A DNA stretch of 64,000 nucleotides from Escherichia phage W115: the sequence record ON286974; one strand, 5' to 3'. Position 1 is the stretch's first letter; the number at the start of each line of letters is the position of its first letter. The notes under the pieces are model-generated. The model was not told the origin of the DNA. It did not search any database and saw nothing but the letters and a program-made list of their open reading frames with translations. Position numbers and translations under genes: made by a program. Shown in pieces: positions 2,732-59,392 of this stretch.

Positions 2732-3169
2732 TTATTTGTTGATAACGATCTGATTTCGGCGAATGGTAACATTACTCTTAGAGATGATCAGATCATCCGG
2801 CACTACGTTAGTTTTGTATGGTTGGAAGCGAACAAGCATCTGATTGCGTTTAGACCCTTCCTTAATCTTGATTTCCATCTGGATATTGTTGCCTACGTGA
2901 GCAACCGCAATTTCACCTTTATTCTCATAGACCCACTTGCTGGTAACGTCTCCAGCAAAAGCCTTAATAACTTGCAATGCTTCGTCGTATGCGGTAGAGC
3001 TGTGAACTTTCAGAAGGCCAGCCGTAGAAAGACGGGAGCAGGTGATCGCCGGAGATTGCCAAACATCAACATTAATTTGCTCAATCAGAGTAACACCGCC
3101 CTGATCAACTGCTTTGAATGCTTCGAACATTGCCTTTTTCATTGCTACGTGGTTTTTACGGAATTTCAT
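2732..3169 (-). CDS. hypothetical protein (145 aa)
   Basis: Track ORF; no recognisable motif. Confidence 0.5.
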   Translation of the reverse strand: MKFRKNHVAMKKAMFEAFKAVDQGGVTLIEQINVDVWQSPAITCSRLSTAGLLKVHSSTAYDEALQVIKAFAGDVTSKWVYENKGEIAVAHVGNNIQMEIKIKEGSKRNQMLVRFQPYKTNVVPDDLIISKSNVTIRRNQIVINK

Positions 3170-3215
3170 AATTAGTCACCTCTATTGATTAGTTATTCAG
3201 AATATTAATTACAAA

Positions 3216-3491
3216 TCAGGACATTGCCCGTTTGAATGCGTCCATTATAACAGTGTTATTTGGCATGTCAACACGTTTTTGAACTTTATTTTTAAATTTT
3301 TTGTTGATGTGGTGTTTACGATAAACAACCTTTTCACGGTTGGCGTAAGCCTCTCGTGCATCTTTTACCATCAACCATGCCTTAGCCGCATCTTGTCCGC
3401 TGATCCCGCCAATCTTTTTAGCAATATCAACAAAATTAAGACCGTGGTCTTCGCGTAGCATGTAAACCATTAACGCTGTTTTCTTGTCCAT
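3216..3491 (-). CDS. hypothetical protein, possible helix-turn-helix
   Basis: Track ORF 3216..3599 trimmed to internal ATG (MDKKTALMV...) which overlaps the stop of the upstream ORF in an ATGA-type junction. Confidence 0.4.
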   Translation of the reverse strand: MDKKTALMVYMLREDHGLNFVDIAKKIGGISGQDAAKAWLMVKDAREAYANREKVVYRKHHINKKFKNKVQKRVDMPNNTVIMDAFKRAMS

Positions 3492-3688
3492 CACTTCGCC
3501 CCATTGACGATTAACAGGATAGTGATCAGCACCGGAAACTGGATCATGATAGTGCCAATAAACCGGATAAACGCATTTTCTGACTTCCACACATGACATG
3601 CGACTAGCTGATAGACCATTGTTGAAACCAGAACTAGGATATAAACCGAAAGCGGTGTAACTTCGATTAGTCGGGAAATCTCATTCAT
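3491..3688 (-). CDS. small hydrophobic membrane protein (65 aa)
   Basis: Track ORF; GAGGTG RBS before ATG; hydrophobic stretch LSVYILVLVSTMVYQLV. Confidence 0.4.
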   Translation of the reverse strand: MNEISRLIEVTPLSVYILVLVSTMVYQLVACHVWKSENAFIRFIGTIMIQFPVLITILLIVNGAK

Positions 3689-3847
3689 ACTTCACCTCAT
3701 ACATTCATAAACACAACAACGAATAATACAGTAACAGTTATCAACGCCATTTTCAACCCCATATTCATAATATTTTCTTCGCCTCACTATGACAGTAGCA
3801 TGTCGATGCGTGCCATTATAGGCATCTAAATCGCTCTGTCAAGCACA

Positions 3848-3888
3848 AAAACAAAAAAGCCACCCCGAAGGATGGCTGATAGATTTCA
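3848..3888 (-). terminator. intrinsic terminator downstream of hoc
   Basis: Hairpin agccacc-ccgaagg-atggct followed on the minus strand by a U-run. Confidence 0.5.
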
Positions 3889-5103
3889 TTAAGCAGGATG
3901 CGTTTCACGAATGCGTAGAACTCGCTCTAACGTCTCTCTGTCCAGCTTATGTAACTCTTTGGACTGATACATGAAACCATTGCGAGATTCCATGCAAGTG
4001 CAATCACTATATTTTTCTTCCGCTGCCGCGATTGTCTCCAGATCTTTGGCGTACTTGCTGGTTGAATAAACTTCTCGGTTACGCCACTCTAACCCAGCCT
4101 CATTGAATTTAACAATCTCGTCAAATACCCACCATCCAATGTAGATAAATGAAGTTTTGCGCCACGGGATCGGGTGTACGTAACGAAACATTTTAACAAC
4201 TTCCATTGAACATTTTCTACTTGTACTTGTTGCAACTTCTACTGTTTCATCTTCGATCTGTTGATATAGTTTAGCAACACACCAGAATTTGGCTGTGTCA
4301 TCGTAAGTAGCACTCTCTTTGAACAGATGACCGTCTGGAGTGATAGAAAATCCTTCCAGTGCTTCGCCAACCTCACTACCGATCAGAGTCGGTGACATTT
4401 GCCCTTCGCGCTGCAAATACCAGTTATATTTGATCGTCAAATTAGGCATACCGCTAGAATCGCCTACAATGTTCTCTGACACAACATAATTAAGTAAGAT
4501 CTCATTACCTAGTGCCACGGTCTTTGATTCCACTACATCCTGATCTACGTTCATTGTTGCCAGCATGATTTTAGTCGATGCGCTATCGGCTGAATCTTCC
4601 GACTCACCCCACACTTTTACAGTATACACGCCGTTTTTATCTGCTGTAAATTTTTGGATCGTAATATCCTGTGTTGTGTCTATAACGTCTTCGCCCTTAC
4701 TCCAACTATAATGTAGTTCATAGTTGTCTGCTGGAGTCTTCCCACCAGAAAATTTTACTGTTGCATGTAATTCTACGTCTGTTTGTGATGATACGTAGAA
4801 ATGCTGCGGTTCGGTGATATTTACGATTAATTCAGCTTCTTCCATGAGGAAAACTTCAGATTCTACTGATTCCATCGTATCGGTATCCTGTACCGTTACT
4901 TTATAGCTACCCGCATTTTCACTTGTTGCACCTACTACAGATAGCGTAGCTGTGCTATTTTCATGTGGTTGGTCGTCTTTTGTCCATGTATATGTCAAAT
5001 TGCTGGGTAATGGTTCGTCACCCGCTACAGTCGCCGTTAAGGTGAAACCATCTCCAGCAAGAAAACATCTTTTGTCAGATTTAATTGATACTGTGAAAGT
5101 CAT
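3889..5103 (-). CDS. hoc: Hoc, highly immunogenic outer capsid protein (Ig-like repeats)
   Basis: 404 aa with repeated Ig-like modules (TYTWTKDDQ..., YELHYSWSKGED..., GSYKVTVQD / GVYTVKVWG) and a C-terminal capsid-binding region; position between gene 24 and uvsW as in T4. Confidence 0.8.
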   Translation of the reverse strand: MTFTVSIKSDKRCFLAGDGFTLTATVAGDEPLPSNLTYTWTKDDQPHENSTATLSVVGATSENAGSYKVTVQDTDTMESVESEVFLMEEAELIVNITEPQHFYVSSQTDVELHATVKFSGGKTPADNYELHYSWSKGEDVIDTTQDITIQKFTADKNGVYTVKVWGESEDSADSASTKIMLATMNVDQDVVESKTVALGNEILLNYVVSENIVGDSSGMPNLTIKYNWYLQREGQMSPTLIGSEVGEALEGFSITPDGHLFKESATYDDTAKFWCVAKLYQQIEDETVEVATSTSRKCSMEVVKMFRYVHPIPWRKTSFIYIGWWVFDEIVKFNEAGLEWRNREVYSTSKYAKDLETIAAAEEKYSDCTCMESRNGFMYQSKELHKLDRETLERVLRIRETHPA

Positions 5104-9058: not shown

Positions 9059-9688
9059 TCAAAGAATTTTAAGGAAACTGGATAGACCTGATAATGAATA
9101 TACACCAGATTCCCCGCATTCGCACTTGATCGGTACTGCCAGCGTGATTTGATTTCTTGTTAGCTCGTCGATCACTTCTTCCACTTTATCCGTGGTAAGC
9201 ATATCCAGCACGCGGTCAAAGTCCTGTGCGTTCAGGTCGTCTATATTGAATTGCTGATCGCCGATCACGATATATTCGATACATGCAATTACCATCTGCA
9301 TAATATCAACATCTTCTGTAAACTTAGGTTGACGAAATTTGATTTTTACTTGCCCTAAGTCCAGAATATACGGTTCAACTTCTGGTATCTGTGTGCGTGA
9401 AACATCAAGAGAGTATACTTTCTCTTTATTGCATACACCACACACCCAAGTAGCATCAATTTTCATCTTATTGAGGCTGTGACACCATAAGAGAAGAAAA
9501 ATATATTCTGCTTCGCATTTCTCTAGCTCTAATGCATTGATCCCCGTACATTCATGTATGATCTCTATAACAACCTCTGACAGCTTGCCAGTCTCTTTTG
9601 CTGCTACCAGTTTTTGAAATTCGCCGAAGGTGAAAGCACGGGCGTGTATCAACTTTTCGCCTAATTGGATCTTGAAAAAGTATTGCAT
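9059..9688 (-). CDS. 26: baseplate hub subunit gp26
   Basis: 209 aa; size and position between 25 and 51 as in T4. Confidence 0.75.
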   Translation of the reverse strand: MQYFFKIQLGEKLIHARAFTFGEFQKLVAAKETGKLSEVVIEIIHECTGINALELEKCEAEYIFLLLWCHSLNKMKIDATWVCGVCNKEKVYSLDVSRTQIPEVEPYILDLGQVKIKFRQPKFTEDVDIMQMVIACIEYIVIGDQQFNIDDLNAQDFDRVLDMLTTDKVEEVIDELTRNQITLAVPIKCECGESGVYSLSGLSSFLKIL

Positions 9689-44477: not shown

Positions 44478-45446
44478 TTACATCCCTAACAGAGCGTCAA
44501 GATCATCCAGATCAGAAGCGGAGGAAGTACCGCCACCCAGATCCAGCGATGCCATCAGGTCATCAGCGGAAGAATCTAACGCCGTGCTAGCTGCGTTAAT
44601 ACCAACTACAGTGCTAGCTGCGTTAATACCAGAATCGAATGCATTCATCTGTGCGTCAAAATCGTCAAGCTGGCTGTTAATCGCTGCCGCAGCACTGGAA
44701 GCCGCAGCACCAGCTACCATAGAAACGCCCATAGTTTTCTTAAATTTGGTTTCCAGTTCATCGAACGGTTTAAACTGGCTAGGCGCTACAATCTCACTCA
44801 GGTCAACCATGTTTTCCATCAGATATTTCTGATATGCTTCGTCTTCAATTTTCGGAAGCTGTGATTGCTGCATGAAACGAGAATCATCATAGTTCTGGTG
44901 TTTATCAACCTTCTTAGCTTTCAGGAGGAAGTTAGCACCGGAGAACACACAAGTTACATCTACCGGAACTTCGCCCATGTCGGTATTCACGTTCACCATT
45001 GCAACGATCTTATCATAAATTTTCTGACCGAAGCGGAATTTGAATACCTTACCTTCATTTTCTGGTGCTTGAGGATCTTTCAGTACCAGAATGTTTGCGT
45101 AGTAAGACGCTTTACGCTTAATCAGTTGCCATTCGGTTTTATCGGTATTGTACAGGTCTTTTTCGTTAATATATTTGCACACAGGGCAAGAATCAAAATC
45201 ACCGTGGGTGCTGGAGCAGTTTTCCCAATACCATTTGCCATTAACTTTGAAGGAATGGTTTACCAGTTTCACAATCGGCAGACCGTCTTCTGTCTTCGAC
45301 GGCAGGAAGCGAATCAGGGCTTCACCGTTACCTGCTGCATCAGTCTTAATCTTCCACTCTTTCGGATCTTCTTTGGAGAAACCGTTGCCACCTTTCAGTG
45401 CGGCCAGTTGAGCTTGCAGTTTGGAAGAATCTTGGCGTTTAAACAT
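44478..45446 (-). CDS. 32: single-stranded DNA-binding protein gp32
   Basis: Start at ATG (MFKRQ...) with AAGGAA RBS; LIRFLPSK...[22 protein letters not shown]...[18 protein letters not shown]... nearly co-linear with T4 gp32; acidic C-terminus. Confidence 0.9.
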
Positions 45447-45506
45447 ATTCACTATTCCTTCTTTTGATTGATTTACTAGACTATTATACAGATTTAAATT
45501 TACTTG

Positions 45507-46187
45507 TCAACTATTTGTTTCGGCTTTTAATTGAGATATTTCTTTACACTCTTTAACTACTTTAACAAATAATGCTCTTGCTTTTGCGGCGTCAATAACA
45601 AGTAGTTTCTTGTACGCCTTCATTTTAACACTATAAGTTTGCCAAATCAAGTCTTTGGCTACCTTGTCGTGTTCGTCGATTATATTTAGAAAGCTATCTA
45701 ACAACATAAACGACTCAAACGATATAATCCGATTTTGCAGTAGTTTAAAGATACCGCTAGTTTCGGTTGCGGGATTATATGTAATTAGCTCTTTAAGAGT
45801 AACCCCGCGTTTCTCTGAGAAGTATACAAGACTTTTAATGTCATCGTCAAATCTTGTTGCTGCATCGGTTATCTTTCCTATGTATTCCATATAAAAGCCG
45901 TATGCGTCAACATCAGTGATTTCACCTACCCATGCATCGGTATTAGCTACCAGATTGCTTAGGAATAGGAAGTATAATTCTCTTAGATTGTACTTTTCCG
46001 CTAATTTTGCGAAATAATACTTATCTCTGCGTTTATTGAATGCGGCATCAGACAACCGCATCCTCCAATTGTATTTTACGCAATCATAACGCCCGTTCAT
46101 GTGAGCTTTCATCATGCAATATAACATATACACAGATTTAGCATTAATTCGCATATCTGGATCTGGAGGAAGACGGTTTCTGATCAT
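45507..46187 (-). CDS. 59: helicase loader gp59
   Basis: 226 aa; AKSVYMLYCMMKAHMNGRYDCVKYNWRMRLSDAAFNKRRDKYYF... co-linear with T4 gp59. Confidence 0.9.
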   Translation of the reverse strand: MIRNRLPPDPDMRINAKSVYMLYCMMKAHMNGRYDCVKYNWRMRLSDAAFNKRRDKYYFAKLAEKYNLRELYFLFLSNLVANTDAWVGEITDVDAYGFYMEYIGKITDAATRFDDDIKSLVYFSEKRGVTLKELITYNPATETSGIFKLLQNRIISFESFMLLDSFLNIIDEHDKVAKDLIWQTYSVKMKAYKKLLVIDAAKARALFVKVVKECKEISQLKAETNS

Positions 46188-48543: not shown

Positions 48544-51500
48544 ATGGCAGATTTTTCTCAACATTTCAAGGCCACATTTGGCTTTGACGCTGGTAATGAA
48601 AAGGTCGTCAATGTAGCATTGGCTGATAAGAATGTCAACACCGATGCGGTCAACGTTGAATTTTTCAATTACCATAATGGTATTACTCAGTATGACACAA
48701 CTCGCGGTTATGATCAATACGGAACTACAATCTATCAAAACCGTCCGTATTATGCAAAAGAAGATATCACAAAGCCAGCAGGTGATTTTGACCCGACTAA
48801 ATGGCAAGCACTGCGCACGGACCCACGTTGGGATTATATTGCAGCAACTTCCGGTGATACTCCTTTAAAGTCTGGTGATTATATCGCAGCAGATGGTCAA
48901 TTTGCAAACTTGACTTTCTCTATGCCAACTAAACCAGCAGAGGGAGACACTATAACAGTAAAAGATATCGGTGGCAAGTGTGGTGTTAACGAATTATCGT
49001 TCTTGAGTACAGGACATGAGTTTTACCATAATGGTAATGTATATAACAGAAAATGGTATTGCACTACCCCGTATGCAATGAACTATTTCATCTTTGTTCG
49101 GAATCGTTGGCATGTTTATCAGACAGGAACAGAGCCACGCGGTGTGTACGCACAGCCAGCGATTGATGCTATTCAAATGCAGAATGGTGATCAGGTATTT
49201 CGTCGTAGTTCGTTGGGTAATATTACCTTAGTGCTTCCTAAGTTTGCCAACAATGGCGACATGATCCAGACTACAGACCTTGACGGATTAACCGCAACCA
49301 ACCACGTTACGGTTAAAGTTCATGAGCACGCAGAAGAACAATCAATTGGCACGTCCGGTCTAAAAGAGATTATCGGTAAGCGTAGCGGTCATGGTGTATT
49401 CATCTTTGACAAGACGGAAAACTTATGGCGTTTGTGGGATGGTGATCAGTCTGTTCGTCTTAAACCGATCATCAATGACACTCGCTTGCAACCTAATAGC
49501 TATGTTGCTGTATTTGGTGGTCGTGATGTTACTCTGACGCTGCCGACCAATGTCGAGCCGGGTGATCGTATTCAAGTTTCTATGCAGTATATGCACGGAA
49601 ACCAGACTTGCCGAATCATTACCTCAGAAGAGGATACAAAAATCCTTATGCAGAAAAACATGGTTCAGTTTCCTAAGCGTAGCGAGTACCCATTCAATGG
49701 GACCGATACATGGACTGGAGTGTCTGAATTGTCTTTCAACGCTGCAAATGATTATGTACCTTATCTGGAGTTCTCTTATTCAGAAGGTGATGATGGTAAG
49801 AAATACTGGTTGGTGGCACATGCTCACCCGATTGTAGAACGAGTAGATCCGACTCGTAAAGATCGTGTTGGTGTAATTGCACTGGCTACCCAGACTGAAA
49901 CGAATAAAAACCATGAAGAGAATCCTAGCGACGAAGTTGCTGTAACACCAAAAATGCTGGCTAATAAAACAGCCAACGAAACTCGACGCGGTATTGCTCG
50001 CATTGCGACTCAAGCGGAAACGCATCAAGATACTGGTTCCAACTTCCTGGATGATGTTATCGTTACACCCAAAAAGTTAAATGACTGTGTTGCTACCGAA
50101 GCCCGTCGTGGTGTGATGGAAATTGCAACCCAGCACGAAACCAATGAAGGTTTAGACGATACCCGCGCTATTACTCCTAAGAAATTAGAAGAACGTCGCG
50201 CTTCCGAAGATCTAGCTGGTATTGCTGAAATTGTTCAGGCTGGCGGTAGTGCTGCCGCTCGACGTGGCGAAGCTGGTACAGGGATCTATAACATCAACGA
50301 CCATGCTAAAATTGTTACGCCACAAAACATCAACGAAGTCAAGGCGACCGAAACTTCCCGTGGTGTTGGCTATCTGGCAACTGACGCGGAAGTGCAAGGG
50401 GCTACAGAATCAACCCCGCAAGATGCTTTACTAATCACGACTCGCACGCTAACGAAACGTACTGCTACCGAATCGCGCACTGGTATCGCTGAAATTGCAA
50501 CTCAGGAAGAAACAAACTTAGGTCAAAGTGATAACCATATCATCACGCCTAAAAAGCTGCATACTCGCCGCGCAACTGAAACTTTACATGGTTTAGCAGA
50601 AATTGCAACTCAACCGGAGTTTGACGCAGGTCGTGACGATTCTCGCATTTCTACCCCATTGAAGATTAAAACCTTCTTTGAGAATGCACAGCGTTTGAAA
50701 GTAGATCCGACTCAGGGGCTTAACCTTACTGGTGATTTGTGGCAAGGTATCATGATCAGCGGTCTGGATGCAACCGAAGACACAAAAGGTGTCGCTAAAG
50801 TTGCTACTACTCAGCTTACTGACGCTGGTCAAGATGATACTACAATCATCACGCCTAAAAAGCTGCAAGGCAAAAAGGCCACCGAAGGTAAAGAAGGCAT
50901 TATCCGAGTTGGTACTCAAGCCGAAACCGTGGCTGGTATTATGGACAATGTAGCAATTTCTCCGAAGAACTTCAAATATGTTGTTCAGACAGAGGATACA
51001 TGGAAAGCAACCGAAGCGCGTCGTGGATTCTTGAAAGTTGCTACTCAGGAAAACTGTTTTGTTGGTGATAATCTGCAAGGTTCTACTCAAGAACTAGGAA
51101 ACTACCAGCATGACGGAATTGCTGTTACCCCTAAAGGATTAAACTACGCACTTGCTAATTTCTTACCTAAGATGGCAACCGCTCAGAATAGTTTGAAATT
51201 GGGTAACGTAGAGGCCTCTAAATGGGCGCGTAGAGACATTGACCAGACCATTGAGAGCAATTACACGTTTAATAAAAACGTTAACGTGAAGGGCGATTTA
51301 GAGTGCTTAAAATCTGGTTCCTTTGAAACTCTGTCTGTGACTAAGAACTCGACCGATGTTCCGAGTAATGGTCATCTGGTGTTGGGTGAGCGTGGAGTTG
51401 ACGGTCACACCGGAATTACTCTGCATGGCACAACCGCATCGGAAGGCATGAAAAACTCTTGGTCTATTATCGTTGGTGGTACTGGAACAGCGCAAGTTGT

Positions 51501-52284
51501 TGATAGTGATGCTATCGCTTTCGGTAAAATCAATGATGGTGGAGTCGTTGAGCATTACGCCTTTGCTATGAAACACAATGGCGACGCGACAGCATATAGA
51601 GACTTTATTGCAGGTCGTAACCTGTATGCGAAACAAGGCGGTTTATACATTGTTGACCAGTCTAATCCGGCAATGACTCGTTCCCCAGATGGTATGCTGA
51701 ATATCGGTCACGGTGGAAGTGTTAACATCAAGGCAGGGCATCAAACGTTAACTACAGAGATCGCCGGACAGAAATATCAGATCGTACACGCAGGAAACGC
51801 TGACGAAGTTCTTAACCGTCAGTTTGTTAAGAATGCTGGCGATACAATGGTCGGTAAGCTGACTATGGATAATGCGCCTATTGTTTCTGTTAAGCATGAA
51901 GCTAGCGCGGCAACCGCTCCGGCAATCGGTAACATCGGTTTCTGGAATATGCGAGTTACTACCCAGAACATCAAAGAAACTTATCCAGAGAAGAAAAACG
52001 GTACTCTGATGCAATGGGGTACTGACGCGGACGGGCTTACCCAGCTTTGGTCCCCTGATGGTACTCATAAACATTATATCCGTTCCGGTACTGGTGGTCA
52101 ATGGACCGCATGGGGTGAAATTTACACCAAACAGAATAAGCCTACCGCTCAGGAAATCGGGGCAGTAGTTGCAGAAGGTGGTTTAATGAACTCTATGACG
52201 GTTCGTGATTGGATCAAAGTTGGTAATGTTAAAATCATCGCCAATAATCTGACTCGTACCGTAGACTTTATCTGGGAAGACTAA
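48544..52284 (+). CDS. 34: long tail fibre proximal subunit gp34
   Basis: 1246 aa; N-terminus and internal repeats (...RRGIARIATQAETHQD..., ...ATEARRGVMEIATQHETNEG...) co-linear with T4 gp34. Confidence 0.9.
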   Translation: MADFSQHFKATFGFDAGNEKVVNVALADKNVNTDAVNVEFFNYHNGITQYDTTRGYDQYGTTIYQNRPYYAKEDITKPAGDFDPTKWQALRTDPRWDYIAATSGDTPLKSGDYIAADGQFANLTFSMPTKPAEGDTITVKDIGGKCGVNELSFLSTGHEFYHNGNVYNRKWYCTTPYAMNYFIFVRNRWHVYQTGTEPRGVYAQPAIDAIQMQNGDQVFRRSSLGNITLVLPKFANNGDMIQTTDLDGLTATNHVTVKVHEHAEEQSIGTSGLKEIIGKRSGHGVFIFDKTENLWRLWDGDQSVRLKPIINDTRLQPNSYVAVFGGRDVTLTLPTNVEPGDRIQVSMQYMHGNQTCRIITSEEDTKILMQKNMVQFPKRSEYPFNGTDTWTGVSELSFNAANDYVPYLEFSYSEGDDGKKYWLVAHAHPIVERVDPTRKDRVGVIALATQTETNKNHEENPSDEVAVTPKMLANKTANETRRGIARIATQAETHQDTGSNFLDDVIVTPKKLNDCVATEARRGVMEIATQHETNEGLDDTRAITPKKLEERRASEDLAGIAEIVQAGGSAAARRGEAGTGIYNINDHAKIVTPQNINEVKATETSRGVGYLATDAEVQGATESTPQDALLITTRTLTKRTATESRTGIAEIATQEETNLGQSDNHIITPKKLHTRRATETLHGLAEIATQPEFDAGRDDSRISTPLKIKTFFENAQRLKVDPTQGLNLTGDLWQGIMISGLDATEDTKGVAKVATTQLTDAGQDDTTIITPKKLQGKKATEGKEGIIRVGTQAETVAGIMDNVAISPKNFKYVVQTEDTWKATEARRGFLKVATQENCFVGDNLQGSTQELGNYQHDGIAVTPKGLNYALANFLPKMATAQNSLKLGNVEASKWARRDIDQTIESNYTFNKNVNVKGDLECLKSGSFETLSVTKNSTDVPSNGHLVLGERGVDGHTGITLHGTTASEGMKNSWSIIVGGTGTAQVVDSDAIAFGKINDGGVVEHYAFAMKHNGDATAYRDFIAGRNLYAKQGGLYIVDQSNPAMTRSPDGMLNIGHGGSVNIKAGHQTLTTEIAGQKYQIVHAGNADEVLNRQFVKNAGDTMVGKLTMDNAPIVSVKHEASAATAPAIGNIGFWNMRVTTQNIKETYPEKKNGTLMQWGTDADGLTQLWSPDGTHKHYIRSGTGGQWTAWGEIYTKQNKPTAQEIGAVVAEGGLMNSMTVRDWIKVGNVKIIANNLTRTVDFIWED

Positions 52285-52317: not shown

Positions 52318-53457
52318 ATGACACAAGATATAGAATTACGCAATACTGGAATTAGGTTTGCGCATTTCGACGAAGACTCTGCGACATTTACCAGCATTTC
52401 AGAAAATAACTCTGTGATGTATAAGCTGGAAGTGCGCGGATCTAATGCGGATTCTACCAAACCAGCAAGGATTAGATTTAATGGAGTGGAGATCGTTGGC
52501 ACTGGCTATGAAAATGGCCTAAATTTTAAAGTTCTTACTCCAACTGGACAACTACACGAAGAAAAGGTATTCTATGGTCGCGGTGCTGTTTTGGCAATGC
52601 GTGATTATCTTTCTTTGCTGAAAGGTGACTATATCATTGCGATGGCAACGCATGGAGAATTGTTTGCAGATCCGATAAGTGATGTTGTATTTTCTAAGAT
52701 GGGATCTGTATCATTCCCGAATCACATTTTGCTACAGCAAATGCCTCGTGTATCCTATGCAGCAATTTATTCTACTAAAATGGGTAAAATTGTGTGCGAA
52801 GGGATGCAAGCGACCAACGGGGAAGGACAAGATTCATCTATACAAATTGAGAAGGTTTATGATACTATAGATGATCTTGCTATAACAGGAACACCACAAC
52901 GATTTTTAGATTATCCGGTTGAGTATGTTAGCGAAGATGCCGAACATTTCGAGCTAATACAATGGCCTCATGATGAGACCAGCGCCCCACTTGAGGATTT
53001 TAACATAAAGGCAGGTGACAAACTATCAATATCCTTTGAATTGTTCCGTGATAGTGCCGCAGCCGCAGCCAACGTAACAGCGCGTTTCTATCACAACTAC
53101 TTCACCGATGGACAATATCAAACTGGTGTTCGATACAATGCCAGCAAAAAAGACCAATGGGAAAAGTTTGAAGCCGTCTATACCGTACCGGAAGGAGTTG
53201 ATAGTGTAGTAACTGGTTGTATCAGATATCCAACCAACTCCAATGAAGGTATTGTTAAAATTAGAAACATACTAATAACGCCGATCAGTGGAGTCGTCAA
53301 AACTACTGGTCCTACTTCATTTGGTGTTAATGGTGTTAGAACAACTCATATTCAGGATAACGGTGATTTTACTAACCCTGTAATGAGTCTTCTTAAACTA
53401 CCCAGAGATAATAAACACATCACATCCAACAACTTTAAAGAGTTCGATGTTGATTAA
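52318..53457 (+). CDS. 35: long tail fibre hinge connector gp35
   Basis: 379 aa; C-terminal FGVNGVR and overall co-linearity with T4 gp35. Confidence 0.85.
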   Translation: MTQDIELRNTGIRFAHFDEDSATFTSISENNSVMYKLEVRGSNADSTKPARIRFNGVEIVGTGYENGLNFKVLTPTGQLHEEKVFYGRGAVLAMRDYLSLLKGDYIIAMATHGELFADPISDVVFSKMGSVSFPNHILLQQMPRVSYAAIYSTKMGKIVCEGMQATNGEGQDSSIQIEKVYDTIDDLAITGTPQRFLDYPVEYVSEDAEHFELIQWPHDETSAPLEDFNIKAGDKLSISFELFRDSAAAAANVTARFYHNYFTDGQYQTGVRYNASKKDQWEKFEAVYTVPEGVDSVVTGCIRYPTNSNEGIVKIRNILITPISGVVKTTGPTSFGVNGVRTTHIQDNGDFTNPVMSLLKLPRDNKHITSNNFKEFDVD

Positions 53458-53465
53458 CATTTTTA

Positions 53466-53500
53466 ACAAGCCGATCCATGTGGTCGGCTTTATTTTTATA
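53466..53500 (+). terminator. intrinsic terminator after gene 35
   Basis: agccgatc-catgt-ggtcggctt hairpin plus TTTATTTTT. Confidence 0.6.
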
Positions 53501-53617
53501 CAGTTGGTTAAATTGTAACCAAAACGAAGAAAGATCTTTAGAATAATAGAAATTTGTTTCGGTTAAAAATTAGTCAGTGCCTACGGCACGTCGCGAAGCG
53601 ATATTTTGTTAACATTC

Positions 53618-53625
53618 TATAAATA
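53618..53625 (+). promoter_or_regulatory. T4-type late promoter (TATAAATA) upstream of gene 36
   Basis: Exact TATAAATA about 33 nt upstream of the gene 36 ATG. Confidence 0.65.
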
Positions 53626-53658
53626 CTCGGAACTATAACTAATTTTTGAGGTTACTTT

Positions 53659-55149
53659 ATGGCAGATTTGAAATATGGATCTACTGTAGGTGGATCGCCC
53701 ATTTGGACGCAAGGAAACTTGACGATCCAGCCAGCGGGGGATCAGCTTTTCTACAAAGGTCATAAAATCTATACCGCTTTTGATAGACCTTCGGCTACCG
53801 ATTTTGATGCTGTTAGTGCATCCGAAGGTGGCACATTTCAAAAGCAAGTTCATTTCGAGGAAGGTTTAAGCGTAGGTAGCGCATCGGCTGGAGAAACCAA
53901 AAAGAATGGTATCTTTAAAGGGCAGAGTGACGCTGCTAATTTTGACGGCGTAAGCTGGGGTTTGCATTCATGGAAGTCAATCGGCTTTGTTAATGCCCGT
54001 GATGGCGTTATCATGGCGTATATTGACACCACAACGGGCGAATTTAAGTCTAAAGGGACTATCGAAGGGACAACCATTAAAGATACAGGTCAACGCGTCT
54101 ATAGCCCTGTTAATAAACCAACGAATAATGATTTGGATTTAGTTTCCCGTCGCGGTGATACTCTCACAGGAACATATAATTTAAACACTGTCACTGTTAA
54201 ACTATCGGTTGATTCGAAATTAATTGCAAGGGAACGTGATTTAATTAATTTTGATGCGACTAAGATCTATTATGGTAACGTTCTTGATACGTTGGTCTTC
54301 CGAAGTAAAGATGAGCCTACCATTTTTGTTAATGGCAAAGAAGGTCGTTTTTATCACACCAACAATAAACCAACTAAAGCCGATGTTGGACTAGGTAATG
54401 TCACCAATGATGCACAGGTTAAACGTGCTGGTGATATTATGGAAGGTAACTTGCAAGCGCCTAGAATGTTGGCGACAAACGATCCTGCTGGTCCTAATGA
54501 ATTGGTTCGTTTGAGCTACTTTGAGAGAAAATCAATGGTAGCAAATCCAACCATCATTGGAAACGTTGATTGGAACACTCTTATTAATCGCGGTATCTAT
54601 CGTGTGGAAAATGCTGGGTCGGGTACTAATAAACCGTCTGATAGCTATTATAACGGCGTTTTGATGGTATATCGCCCAGAAGATGCGGTCGGTACTCGTC
54701 GAATTGTTCAGGTGTATTATCCTGAATCTATTGACCATCCGATGTGCTGGCGTTCGTGTTCTAATGAATCATGGACTGCATGGAACTATGTAGATCACCG
54801 TAAATTAGCCGATATTCGCTATGTTAACGTAACTGGCGATACCATGACAGGACCGTTAACTGTTCCGGCTGCAAATGGCGTTAGAACAGCTAAAACTAAC
54901 TATAACGGGGATAACTGTTATGCGGCGTTAAGCGGTGCTGATGGTACTGCTATGATTCACCGCATTAGTGATATTAAAGGGACCGAAAAGCTGGGGATCA
55001 CCCACGACTCAAAGGTCGTGTTTTTCCGTTCTAGAAACAATACTCAAACCGTGGACCGCTATCAGCTTTATCATGAAGGTAATAAACCTACTCCGGCTGA
55101 TGTTGGAGCGGTTCCACTTAATGCGGTGATTGATTTTGGTACTTTCTAA
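53659..55149 (+). CDS. 36: long tail fibre distal connector gp36 (enlarged, 496 aa)
   Basis: N-terminus MADLKYGSTVGGSPIWTQGN...PAGD..FYKG.KIY matches T4 gp36, but the protein is more than twice the T4 length (221 aa). Confidence 0.8.
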   Translation: MADLKYGSTVGGSPIWTQGNLTIQPAGDQLFYKGHKIYTAFDRPSATDFDAVSASEGGTFQKQVHFEEGLSVGSASAGETKKNGIFKGQSDAANFDGVSWGLHSWKSIGFVNARDGVIMAYIDTTTGEFKSKGTIEGTTIKDTGQRVYSPVNKPTNNDLDLVSRRGDTLTGTYNLNTVTVKLSVDSKLIARERDLINFDATKIYYGNVLDTLVFRSKDEPTIFVNGKEGRFYHTNNKPTKADVGLGNVTNDAQVKRAGDIMEGNLQAPRMLATNDPAGPNELVRLSYFERKSMVANPTIIGNVDWNTLINRGIYRVENAGSGTNKPSDSYYNGVLMVYRPEDAVGTRRIVQVYYPESIDHPMCWRSCSNESWTAWNYVDHRKLADIRYVNVTGDTMTGPLTVPAANGVRTAKTNYNGDNCYAALSGADGTAMIHRISDIKGTEKLGITHDSKVVFFRSRNNTQTVDRYQLYHEGNKPTPADVGAVPLNAVIDFGTF

Positions 55150-55180
55150 TTTTAGCGGGGATTATCTCCCCGCTTTTCTA
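55150..55180 (+). terminator. hairpin after gene 36
   Basis: agcgggga-ttatct-ccccgct followed by TTTTCT. Confidence 0.45.
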
Positions 55181-55219
55181 AATAATATTATTCTAATAAC
55201 CGTTTAAGGATTTTATAAA

Positions 55220-58135
55220 ATGGCAGATTTAAGCAGAATCCAATTTAAACGCACTAGCACTAAAGGTCGTAAACCGGATGCTAGTACGATGAATCCGGGG
55301 GAATTGGCAATCAACCTTGCGGATCAATATCTTCTTACTAAAAATGATTCCGGTGATATTATCAATTTAAGTTGTCCTCCGGTGTATGACCGCGATGTTA
55401 CAATGGCGGGTAAGGTTAAAGGTAATAATTATATCTTAGGTAAAACCGCCAACTATCTGGAAGATCAGACAGCGCGAGATCTTAACTATTTTGGTGCTTT
55501 CCGTACCAATGGTCTTGATGGTTTTCTCGAACTCACGCTAAACGTTCCTCATTCTTCTGGTGTTCAGCATGGTCGAGGATTTACTTTCCAGTATGGACAC
55601 ACAGGAAACCGTGTAGAAACTTATGGTTATAATAAAGAAGGACAAAAAGCATTTAGTTATAAAATGTATCACGAAGGTGATAAACCAACTCCAGGAGAAT
55701 TGAACGTCTATAGCAAACAAGAAATTGACAGAATGTTTATTAAAAACGTTAAAATGTCTGTTCCTTCCGGTGACGCAACTCGTGGTTACTTTAAGATCGC
55801 GACCGCAATGATTCCGCAGAATGGTCGAATGGCATTTTTACGGATTTACGGCGGAAACGGATATAATGTTAACTCCTACGATCAGGTGGATTTCCTTGAA
55901 ATTGTGATTCGTGGTGGTAATAATAACCCTAAAGGTGTTAGTATTGCTGCATATCGTCGTAATTCTTTGAACGTCCATGAAGTATTTGCAATTAATACTT
56001 CCGGTGATAACTATGACATTTATGTTAACTATGGTCGTTACACCGATAACGTTATTGTAGAGTTTGGAAAAACTGTTGATGTTGCATTGACTGTTCATGA
56101 TGTTCCTGAATTTTCGGCGACTAAACCAGCAACCGGAACTAAATTTGATGCTCGTGTTATTACAATGTTCAACACCGAAAACAAAGCCGGAACGTTGATG
56201 TTTGATAATAACGGTCAAGGAACGTATGATATTATCAGCTTGAATAACTCGACTGATAGCAATAAAAAATATCTTCGTAAGTTTCGTAGCAAATCCGCAG
56301 AAACAATATGGCATGAAGTTGTCGAGGGTAGCGTATATCGTTTAGCTACGGGCGTTACTGATCAGTCAGACCAACTAAAAATTGATTTTAATGGGGTTAC
56401 TGTAAATCGTCTTTTCGTTAAGGGAAATAATGCTATCAGAATGGAGCGTAGAGACGGACAAAGTAATTACCTAGAATTTTATGATTATCGTTCCGGTGCT
56501 AACCGCCGTCAAGGTTATCTAGGATATGGTGACGGTACTACTAACACCGTACAGTTAGTAAATGAATTAACGGAAGGTACTAACTCATTACGACTGGATG
56601 ATACTGGTCAGGTTACGCTGTCAGTAGGCAAAACAAAAATTGTATATACCAACGGACAATATTATTCCGCTAACTCTGATGCATTCCGTATGATTTACGG
56701 CAATTATGGCGCATTCTGGCGAAATGATGGTCAAAAAGTATATTTGTTGTCTACTGCCGAAAATGATCGTTTTGGTGGATGGAACGGCAACCGACCATTC
56801 ATTTACGACCTGTCAACTGGTAAAGTTACTTTAGGTGGCGACGGTAACGAAGGCGCATTAGTTCTCGAAAGAGATAGCCGTGCGGCTAGATTTGCAGGTG
56901 ACATTTATGTCGGTAACGGGATGTTAACCTTTGATGCTGGGCGATTAAATTCTCGTGATTACTTCCGATTTAATCATTGGGGCGATAGCAATAACGCTCG
57001 TGATAACATCTTACAGCTTGACGATAGCAAGGGTGCTCATTTTACCACTGAACGTACTTTAGCAACTGGTGCAATTAAAACTAAATTCTTCGGTGATTTG
57101 GAATCTGCTGGTCAAATTAAATGGGGTAAAGGGACCGCCACATCTACGTTTAATATACGTGTGTGGGGTGCTGATGCTCGTAAACAGGTGTTTGAGTGTG
57201 CTGATGAAAGCGGTTGGCATTGGTATACCCAACGTCCGGGCGGTCCAGATACTTCTGCAATTGAGTTTGTCATCAATGGTACTGTTAAACCTCAAGCAAT
57301 CCACACTGGCGGTAATATCACGCTTAACGGTGCTGATATTGAATTTAAACGAAGCGGTAACAAGCATTTATGGTTTAGAGATCCGAACGGCTTAGAGTTG
57401 GGTCTGTTGTACTGCGATGATGCTGGTGTTATGCGTATTCGTGGGGAGAAATCGACCGAAGTATGGAAATTCTCAGCAAAACAGATTCATCTGGAAACTG
57501 GTACTGCCGGAAATGGTGTAGGCTTGCTTCGTGGTGCTGTAGGTGGTGGCGCATGGACTCAATGGCGAGATCGTGGCACTGGCTTGCAGGTTGATTGTCA
57601 GCAATCTGAAAACTCAGCGCATAACGTATGGAGAGCTACGCATCAAGGAAAATACCACATCGCGGCAATGGGTGTACACGTTCCTGGTGGTACTATCGGA
57701 AATGCTATGGTGCGTATTCACGTACACGATGCAACTTTTGACTTTAGCGCAACTGGTGATTTCCAAGCAGGTCGTAACGGTAATTTTAACGATGTGTACA
57801 TTCGTTCTGATGCTCGCCTGAAAATCAATAAGGAAGAGTATAAAGAGAATGCTACCGATAAAGTTAATCGCTTGACGGTATACACCTATGACAAGGTTAA
57901 ATCTTTAAGTGACCGTACTGTCATTGCTCATGAAGTTGGTATTATTGCTCAGGATCTTGAGAAAGAATTGCCAGAAGCAGTAAAAACCTCGAAGATCGGC
58001 GACGGTGATACACCAGAAGAGATCTTAACAATTTCTAACTCTGCTGTCAACGCTCTTTTAATTAAGGCGTTTCAGGAAATGAGCGAAGAATTGAAAGCCG
58101 TTAAAGCTGAACTAGCGGAACTTAAAAAGAATTAA
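55220..58135 (+). CDS. 37: long tail fibre distal subunit gp37 with C-terminal S74-type intramolecular chaperone domain
   Basis: 971 aa; N-terminus MADLSRIQFKRTSTKGRKPDAS...GELAINL matches T4 gp37; C-terminal ...YIRSDARLKINKEEY...AHEVGIIAQDLEKELPEAV... resembles the self-cleaving chaperone domain of endosialidase-type fibres. Confidence 0.85.
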   Translation: MADLSRIQFKRTSTKGRKPDASTMNPGELAINLADQYLLTKNDSGDIINLSCPPVYDRDVTMAGKVKGNNYILGKTANYLEDQTARDLNYFGAFRTNGLDGFLELTLNVPHSSGVQHGRGFTFQYGHTGNRVETYGYNKEGQKAFSYKMYHEGDKPTPGELNVYSKQEIDRMFIKNVKMSVPSGDATRGYFKIATAMIPQNGRMAFLRIYGGNGYNVNSYDQVDFLEIVIRGGNNNPKGVSIAAYRRNSLNVHEVFAINTSGDNYDIYVNYGRYTDNVIVEFGKTVDVALTVHDVPEFSATKPATGTKFDARVITMFNTENKAGTLMFDNNGQGTYDIISLNNSTDSNKKYLRKFRSKSAETIWHEVVEGSVYRLATGVTDQSDQLKIDFNGVTVNRLFVKGNNAIRMERRDGQSNYLEFYDYRSGANRRQGYLGYGDGTTNTVQLVNELTEGTNSLRLDDTGQVTLSVGKTKIVYTNGQYYSANSDAFRMIYGNYGAFWRNDGQKVYLLSTAENDRFGGWNGNRPFIYDLSTGKVTLGGDGNEGALVLERDSRAARFAGDIYVGNGMLTFDAGRLNSRDYFRFNHWGDSNNARDNILQLDDSKGAHFTTERTLATGAIKTKFFGDLESAGQIKWGKGTATSTFNIRVWGADARKQVFECADESGWHWYTQRPGGPDTSAIEFVINGTVKPQAIHTGGNITLNGADIEFKRSGNKHLWFRDPNGLELGLLYCDDAGVMRIRGEKSTEVWKFSAKQIHLETGTAGNGVGLLRGAVGGGAWTQWRDRGTGLQVDCQQSENSAHNVWRATHQGKYHIAAMGVHVPGGTIGNAMVRIHVHDATFDFSATGDFQAGRNGNFNDVYIRSDARLKINKEEYKENATDKVNRLTVYTYDKVKSLSDRTVIAHEVGIIAQDLEKELPEAVKTSKIGDGDTPEEILTISNSAVNALLIKAFQEMSEELKAVKAELAELKKN

Positions 58136-58177
58136 GGAAAAATCCCAGGGAAGGGAAACTACTAAGGAGAAACGGCT

Positions 58178-58417
58178 ATGGTCTATAATATCGTCATTGG
58201 TGCTTTGTCTAGTTTCGGAATGAAACTATTATCAAAGTTAATTAGTGAAAAGATGCTCACTAAAATTTTCTTCTACTGCGCTCGTCGTCTTGCGGCCTAT
58301 ACCAATACGCCAATTGATGATCGTTTTGTGGAAGAACTTTATAAGGAGTTTAATAAAGATCAATCAGAAGATAGCAACGAGCAAGATAAACCTAGTGATA
58401 GTCAAGTACCTAAATAA
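58178..58417 (+). CDS. small protein with N-terminal hydrophobic helix (79 aa)
   Basis: AAGGAGA RBS; sits where T4 has gene 38, but is too short and unlike gp38. Confidence 0.5.
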   Translation: MVYNIVIGALSSFGMKLLSKLISEKMLTKIFFYCARRLAAYTNTPIDDRFVEELYKEFNKDQSEDSNEQDKPSDSQVPK

Positions 58418-58450
58418 GAGTACACTGTCATAGTTATCTTAGGGCATTAT

Positions 58451-59107
58451 ATGCAAGTTTCTGAAAAAGAGAAAGACTTTGCTATCTCAAATGTCCTGCG
58501 CGCTATTTTCACAACTAAAAGCACGGAGTTGCTCGTACTTCGTGTTTTTGCTGCCGTCGTGTTGTCCATATTAGCATTTGTCGTTTATAGTAAAAACGAG
58601 TTATTTGCGCTTTATAAAGAGACTCGTTATGAGACTTATGCTCACGTTCTCCAGGTAGAGAAAGACCGCAATTTTGATAATGCAGCACAGGAGCAGTTAC
58701 AGATAGTTCATGTGTCGGCTGATGCCGATTTTTCTGCTGTTTTTAGTTTTCGTCCGAAAAACCTAAACTATTTTGTTGATTTGGTGGCATATGAAGGAAA
58801 GCTACCGCACACAATCGATGAAAAAAATTTAGGCGGATTCCCTATCAATAAAACGAGTGAAGAATATCGTAGGCATCTTTTAGGTAAATCATATTTTACC
58901 GATAAAGATTTCCAGTATATTCCATCAAGAGAAAAGAAATTAGAGAATATCGATATAGGTTTCATGTATTCTTGTCCTATATTCAATCTCGATAATGTCT
59001 ATTCTGGTAGTATCGCCATTGCATGGAGGAATAAACCAGATATTGACATTGAGAATTTAGATACTCTTTGCAATCAATCTGCCAGAATCCTCGGAAGGAT
59101 TAGATAA
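58451..59107 (+). CDS. t: holin T
   Basis: 218 aa; ...YETYAHVLQVEKDRNFDNAAQEQLQIVHVSADADFSAVFSFRPKNLNYFVDLVAYEGKLP... co-linear with T4 holin; one N-terminal TM segment. Confidence 0.9.
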   Translation: MQVSEKEKDFAISNVLRAIFTTKSTELLVLRVFAAVVLSILAFVVYSKNELFALYKETRYETYAHVLQVEKDRNFDNAAQEQLQIVHVSADADFSAVFSFRPKNLNYFVDLVAYEGKLPHTIDEKNLGGFPINKTSEEYRRHLLGKSYFTDKDFQYIPSREKKLENIDIGFMYSCPIFNLDNVYSGSIAIAWRNKPDIDIENLDTLCNQSARILGRIR

Positions 59108-59143
59108 CTTAAAAGGGGAAGCCTTTCGGCCTCCCCTTCTTTT
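59108..59143. terminator. bidirectional intrinsic terminator after holin t
   Basis: aggggaagcc-tttc-ggcctcccct hairpin plus TTTTTT. Confidence 0.65.
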
Positions 59144-59392
59144 TTATTGGCGCATAGAAGCCCCTGAATCACATTTTGACGCTGTATGATGAAAACATGT
59201 AGCGTACCAGTCATCGGCTTGTTTGTCTTCGTCAGAAAACGCGTAATTTCGTTGTATACCGTTTTCTACTTTGACCAGTGCGATAGCTGTTTCTGGAAGA
59301 TCAATCAATCGGACAAAATCGCCATCTTCCCATTCTACACGAGCAATATCATAGCCCATCTCAAAGTATACAATCGCTTGTTCTAATTTCAT
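59144..59392 (-). CDS. hypothetical protein (82 aa)
   Basis: Track ORF. Confidence 0.45.
   Translation of the reverse strand: MKLEQAIVYFEMGYDIARVEWEDGDFVRLIDLPETAIALVKVENGIQRNYAFSDEDKQADDWYATCFHHTASKCDSGASMRQ

Follow-up and report, generated by a model that had tools for sequence, protein, structure and literature searches.

We analyzed a 64,000-nucleotide stretch of the genome of Escherichia phage W115 (sequence record ON286974), referred to below as the window, at the locus encoding the tail fibers. According to the ORF listing, the genes in this region follow the order g34-g35-g36-g37-79-aa ORF-holin t, with g34 found at positions 48544–52284, g35 at 52318–53457 (+ strand), g36 at 53659–55149 (+, 496 aa), g37 at 55220–58135 (+, 971 aa), and the small ORF of 79 aa at 58178–58417 (+). 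The next gene, holin t (58451–59107, +), is identified by Pfam Phage_holin_T (PF11031, E = 1.7e-61) and PHROG_860 and directly follows the 79-aa ORF, just as the first-pass annotation of this DNA had read it. The region 53600–59150 shares 96.8% nucleotide identity with Escherichia phage FL37 (Krischvirus) and 90–94% with RB49 (90.6%), AV108, Phi1, ECD7, and others, all of which belong to Krischvirus and retain the same gene order. By nucleotide identity, the window is assigned to a Krischvirus (RB49-like, “pseudo-T-even”) phage with FL37 as its closest relative. In gp35 (gene 52318–53457, +), residues 66 to 133 give a subthreshold match to the Pfam ILEI domain (E = 5.9e-4, 20.7 bits versus a cutoff of 27).

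An intrinsic terminator-like hairpin with a 9-bp stem and a T-run (53468–53490, +) ends the g34-g35 unit, and this strong terminator is followed ≈130 nt on by the T4-type late promoter consensus TATAAATA (53618–53625, +), positioned 33 nt upstream of the g36 ATG. Given this arrangement of hairpin and TATAAATA, the distal half-fiber genes and t look transcriptionally separate from g34-g35. The stretches separating g37, the 79-aa ORF, and t contain no convincing terminator, and a good Shine–Dalgarno sequence (AAGGAG, 58166–58171) precedes the small ORF, such that g36, g37, the 79-aa ORF, and t look like a single late unit, the transcription of which probably starts at the TATAAATA promoter.

The enlarged gp36 that had been noted from the sequence is confirmed by the ORF listing and by comparison with T4: the W115 protein is 496 aa in length versus 221 aa for T4 gp36. 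Codons 1 to 171 (53659–54171, +) specify the T4 gp36-homologous part, the hinge connector that binds gp35, which shares 37% identity with residues 1 to 184 of T4 gp36 (E = 1e-29, BLASTP). The protein also matches PHROG_1425 (E = 8e-55) and scores just below threshold against Pfam PF03903 (21.4 bits against 26); homology to the T4 hinge connector is therefore clear for this part of the protein, but the family core does not extend into the C-terminal 325 residues. These ≈325 extra residues, encoded by codons 172 to 496 (54172–55149, +), are absent from T4 gp36 and returned no Pfam, NCBIfam, or PDB match by sequence search. Two collar motifs recur in gp36, GDxxTG at residues 166 to 171, 258 to 263, and 393 to 398, and YHxxNKPTxADVG at residues 232 to 244 and 470 to 483. 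Full-length homologues of 50 to 95% identity are restricted to a narrow sequence group, with remoter matches sharing only the motifs; the gp36 homologues named “pyocin knob domain-containing” by NCBI, for which no NCBIfam model was matched, align via these collar motifs (residues 133–269) and not via the compact domain described next.

For gp36 as a whole, the AlphaFold model is poor (mean pLDDT of 49). The better-predicted part of the extension is a compact β domain at residues ≈296 to 380 (window 54544–54798, +; pLDDT of 71–82), which carries a knob-like sequence pattern, DWNTL..G.Y...N.P....G.L.V. A Foldseek search with the gp36 model returned weak matches to R1/R2 pyocin fibers (probability of 0.95–0.97, TM about 0.15), which do no more than hint that the domain is knob-like; on the shaft, it could serve as decoration or as an accessory binding module. 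As predicted by the model, then, the extra length of gp36 consists of shaft with a single small globular domain. That the extension was borrowed from the N-terminal part of T4 or RB32 gp37 was considered and rejected, as no significant similarity was found. Together, gp36 and mature gp37 amount to 496 + 862 = 1358 residues per chain versus 1247 in T4, and the simplest reading of the long gp36 is a shaft of similar length split differently between two genes. The size of g36 is variable in T4-like phages, which fits the “hyperplasticity” described for the fiber locus (Trojet et al. 2011, PMC3157838). Between W115 and RB49, gp36 is 99.8% identical.

The gp37 chain opens with a conserved N-terminus that forms the joint with gp36 (codons 1–71; 55220–55432, +) and is 46% identical to residues 1 to 71 of T4 gp37 (E = 3e-13). 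Codons 456 to 529 (56585–56806, +) encode a Gp34_trimer-type shaft domain (PF21446, E = 3.4e-26), which also matches the T4 gp34 structures 4uxe and 5nxf and the Mu S fiber 5yvq. Neither of the needle domains gp37_trimer and gp37_C (PF20744, PF12604) is detected by Pfam in W115 gp37; the FelixO1 fiber, which served as a positive control for them, scores 4.6e-91 and 1.1e-33. W115 and RB49 gp37 are 78% identical, with divergent blocks at residues 361 to 480 and 681 to 800. Encoded at 56300–56660 and 57260–57620 (+), these blocks are only 45 to 65% identical to their RB49 counterparts, as against 88 to 100% for the N-terminus and the chaperone domain. Over the last 221 residues of gp37, the closest match is not FL37, the best one overall, but phage Delraymugoa, with 99% identity across 205 aligned residues. 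The divergent blocks and the Delraymugoa-like end suggest mosaic exchange within g37, and the divergence from RB49, judged from these alignments, appears to be allelic or mosaic within the same design.

The C-terminal region of gp37, codons 863 to 971 plus stop (57806–58135, +), encodes an S74 intramolecular chaperone with a C-terminal helix. The resemblance to S74 proposed for this segment is borne out by a Peptidase_S74 match (PF13884) at residues 863 to 922 that is far beyond chance (E = 1.2e-11, 45.1 bits versus a curated cutoff of 22), as well as by PDB and Foldseek matches, and both gp37 motifs quoted in its favor are present, YIRSDARLKINKEEY at residues 860 to 874 and GIIAQDLEKELPEAV. 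In the K1F endosialidase, the catalytic dyad is Ser911/Lys916 in the pattern S-D-x-R-x-K, with the Ser at the start of the domain and the Lys five residues on. The corresponding dyad of gp37, Ser863/Lys868, is intact in the sequence SDARLK (S863 at nt 57806), which aligns with SDRRIK of Salmonella phage S16 gp37. Residues 857 to 969 match the C-terminal part of S16 gp37 (6f45_A, E = 1.5e-5) and, more weakly, the MyRF ICA (7dc3) in a PDB sequence search. The AlphaFold model of residues 700 to 971 is confident only at residues 860 to 971 (pLDDT of 69–96), where it features a long helix (residues 940–970), and Foldseek pairs the modeled chaperone with the MyRF ICA (7dc3, E = 2.9e-5, TMt of 0.66), GA-1 (3gud, probability of 1.0), and K1F (3gw6, probability of 0.99). 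In short, the family profile, the Ser–Lys dyad, and, in the model, the C-terminal fold with its long helix are all found in gp37, and cleavage is expected between Arg862 and Ser863. Folding chaperoned in cis with autoproteolytic release, as put forward in the first-pass annotation, is the mechanism to be expected from an S74 domain with an intact dyad; the purely cis version of that proposal is unlikely, because RB49 also encodes the general fiber chaperone gp57A.

The position between g37 and t, which gene 38 occupies in the usual synteny (a placement dispensable for function), is filled in W115 by the 79-aa ORF. A six-frame scan of the 64-kb window together with a tblastn search with RB49 gp38 revealed no gp38-like or glycine-rich ORF (sole match, E = 4.3). 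The claim that gp38 is missing is therefore correct for the g37 locus and for the window but does not extend to the genus, as both RB49 and FL37 encode gp38 at a distant locus. RB49 gene 38 (45367–46143, minus strand), situated between the rI/tk and dam/nrdC blocks, encodes 258 aa with PF05268 (E = 7e-72) and Gp38_N (PF21721), and the FL37 adhesin gene (81526–82311) harbors the same two domains; of the 30 relatives listed for the W115 block, at least 20 are among the tblastn matches to RB49 gp38. The displacement of g38 in RB49 is known (Trojet et al. 2011, PMC3157838, citing Desplats 2002). A 2025 study places g38 near holin in three other Krischvirus isolates but not in FL37 (PMC12032242), and the position of g38 therefore varies within Krischvirus. 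Extrapolating from these relatives, we infer that g38 is present in this W115 genome, outside the window.

The displaced genes have several features of their own. Three tryptophans are described as mediating docking in S16; RB49 gp38 has a Tyr in place of the third, its attachment domain carrying Trp7, Trp20, and Tyr35 at the positions of Trp8, Trp21, and Trp37 in RB32 gp38 (RB32 g38 at 3130–3930 of the segment examined). A G+C-rich hairpin, GCCCCTTAATTGGGGC, with a T-run lies just upstream of the displaced RB49 g38 (AY343333, 46144–46260, minus strand), directly before the ribosome-binding site, and the same hairpin is found upstream of g38 in FL37 (9400–9526 in FL37 segment L003). The TATAAATA late promoter is absent within about 120 nt upstream of the displaced g38 in RB49 and FL37. 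The displaced g38 is a structural gene embedded among small ORFs of the early region, and the sequence does not readily show how it would be expressed late.

The distal end of mature gp37 (codons 779–862; 57554–57805, +) is the candidate docking platform for gp38. Residues 779 to 955, a span that comprises the 84 residues preceding the predicted cleavage site and most of the chaperone domain, are 59 to 65% identical to the gp37s of the T6-like phages RB32 (65.5%), ESh30, and RB5 (tblastn) and only 33 to 39% identical to T5-like L-shaped fibers. The monomer model of residues 700 to 859 is of low confidence. In RB32, g38 lies directly downstream of g37, in the order g37-g38-t, and its gp37 harbors Gp34_trimer and Peptidase_S74 domains as does that of W115; in RB49, gp37 is described as shedding its self-cleaving chaperone and bearing gp38 thereafter (Golomidova et al. 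2022, PMC9569957). Because RB32 has both and RB49 likewise, an S74 domain and gp38 are partners, not alternatives. Of the proposal that the receptor-binding tip differs from the T4 and T2 types, the first half holds and the second does not: the RB32-like end of gp37 and the presence of gp38 in relatives point to a W115 fiber tip of the T2/T6/S16 type, unlike that of T4.

The 79-aa ORF (RB49p252/Dc5; PHROG_402) was correctly described as a short gene unlike gp38: it yields no alignment with RB49- or T2-type gp38, and a match to T4 gp38 was rejected by profile comparison. The latter, considered as a possible remnant of a T4-type gp38, consists of 19 residues including EELYKEF (BLASTP, E = 0.001 in a single comparison) and is regarded as chance, given an hhalign probability of 0.9%; T4 gp38 has no Pfam family. 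The small ORF is 96% identical between W115 and RB49. Homologues are found in 387 phage records (tblastn), 58 of them above 90% identity and the rest below 60%, and those shown above 90% are all RB49-like phages of ≈165 kb. The PHROG_402 family is characterized by a T-x-T-P-I-D-D-x-F motif, an N-terminus that is weakly hydrophobic, and a charged, acidic tail. In the contexts examined, the homologues adjoin receptor-binding genes, lysis genes, or both. In Felixounavirus and Suspvirus, the order is tail fiber, homologue, and then a gene annotated as holin in mistaenkt, with the genes abutting or overlapping; in Vibrio phages, the homologue starts 2 nt after a lysozyme-like gene; in Aeromonas phage LAh_8, it follows a tail-needle knob protein gene. 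The family occupies the junction of receptor-binding and lysis genes in at least four phage lineages. It is not tied to S74, since the FelixO1 fiber upstream of the homologue has a T4-type tip (gp37_C).

Three other readings of the fiber end merit consideration. If the S74 domain were a noncleaving relic, it would stay attached as the fiber tip or block that tip. We consider this very unlikely: Ser863, Lys868, and the stretch NDVYIRSD-RLKIN are invariant across the aligned gp37s of W115, RB49, RB32, and M1, sequences drawn from Krischvirus and Tequatrovirus, and this invariance points to purifying selection on the catalytic site, and the domain scores well over the Pfam threshold and folds confidently in the model. 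The RB49 domain is, moreover, regarded as self-cleaving in the literature (PMC9569957). A fiber that dispenses with gp38 altogether, folded by the cis chaperone only and binding the receptor through the exposed end of gp37 in the manner of T5 pb1, would have a tip unlike those of both T4 and T2. The L-shaped fiber protein pb1 of T5 works without an adhesin cap, and both the 64-kb window devoid of any gp38 homologue and the identity of T5-like fiber proteins to gp37 residues 779 to 955 are in keeping with such a design. That identity is nonetheless much lower than the one shared with the gp38-bearing T6-like phages over the same end, and every close relative examined has a gene for the gp38 adhesin at a remote position. 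With RB49 host-range mutations mapping to gp38 (E230K; Golomidova et al. 2022, PMC9569957), we judge a gp38-less phage to be extremely improbable.

A further possibility is that the 79-aa ORF replaces gp38 functionally, as a miniature fiber chaperone or tip protein. It fills the g38 slot and is probably cotranscribed with g37, it shares the seven-residue string EELYKEF with T4 gp38, and its homologues follow a fiber gene in Felixounavirus and Suspvirus and the needle knob protein gene in LAh_8. On the other hand, the T4 gp38 profile comparison and the missing T2-type alignment speak against it, as does the Vibrio phage homologue, which directly follows a lysozyme-like gene and not a fiber; in Felixounavirus and Suspvirus, the homologue abuts or overlaps the next gene, the putative holin gene of mistaenkt, and the fibers that precede it differ in their tips, T4-type gp37_C in FelixO1 versus S74 in W115. 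Since Krischvirus possesses a separate gp38 as well, replacement of gp38 by this ORF is unlikely. A lysis-associated role is our leading guess, held with low confidence: the 79-aa ORF could, tentatively, represent a so far undescribed partner of the holin or a regulator of lysis, coexpressed with holin t.

We are thus left with high confidence in a standard Krischvirus distal fiber block, in which an S74-cleaved gp37 is capped by a distantly encoded gp38 of the T2/T6/S16 type. Its observed basis consists of the domain identities, the intact dyad, a precleavage end homologous to the gp37 of phages that bear gp38, and the g38 genes of the nearest relatives. In the assembly pathway that we propose, the late promoter before g36 probably drives g36, g37, the 79-aa ORF, and t as one unit; gp36 would join gp35 via its T4-like N-terminal 171 residues, with the further ≈325 residues forming shaft; gp37 would trimerize with the help of its own S74 chaperone (residues 863–971) and probably also of gp57A, which is encoded elsewhere in RB49. 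The chaperone would then cut itself off at Ser863 by means of the Ser863/Lys868 dyad, leaving a new gp37 end on which one gp38 monomer may dock to recognize the receptor. The g38 gene itself would sit outside the window, about 57 kb from g37 in one direction around the genome or about 107 kb in the opposite one.

The W115 arrangement is one already described for RB49-like phages, and this block leaves the current view of tail fiber assembly unchanged. Its practical bearing is on the prediction of host range in RB49-like phages, for which the receptor-binding protein should be sought away from the fiber locus; an S74 domain with no adjacent gp38, if read as a gp38-less tip, leads to specificity being assigned to the wrong protein.

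Among known systems, the RB49/Krischvirus fiber module (Desplats et al. 2002; PMC3157838; PMC9569957) is matched in gene order, in a gp36 of 496 aa, in the S74 C-terminus of gp37, and in a nonadjacent g38, the difference being a gp37 only 78% identical to that of W115. The S16 tip (PDB 6F45) and its counterparts in T2, T6, M1, and RB32 share with W115 the self-cleaving chaperone domain at the end of gp37, and their monomeric gp38, with its Gp38_N attachment domain and glycine-rich receptor-binding domain, has its equivalent in Krischvirus. In those phages, however, g38 lies between g37 and t, a slot occupied in W115 by the 79-aa ORF, which is unrelated to g38; the relatives of W115 have g38 far away and on the other strand. 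The chaperones of the K1F endosialidase (3GW6), the GA-1 neck appendage (3GUD), T5 pb1, and the eukaryotic MyRF ICA (7DC3) belong to the same family and share the Ser–Lys dyad, the C-terminal position, and the terminal helix; for the endosialidase and T5 pb1, cleavage exposes a protein with an enzymatic or receptor-binding function of its own, whereas the exposed end in W115 is probably capped by gp38. Finally, the T4 distal half-fiber (gp36 of 221 aa, gp37 of 1026 aa, and the chaperone gp38) has homologous gp36 and gp37 N-termini, shaft segments, and t downstream, but W115 lacks both the gp37_C/gp37_trimer needle tip and a T4-type gp38, and its gp36 is more than twice as long.
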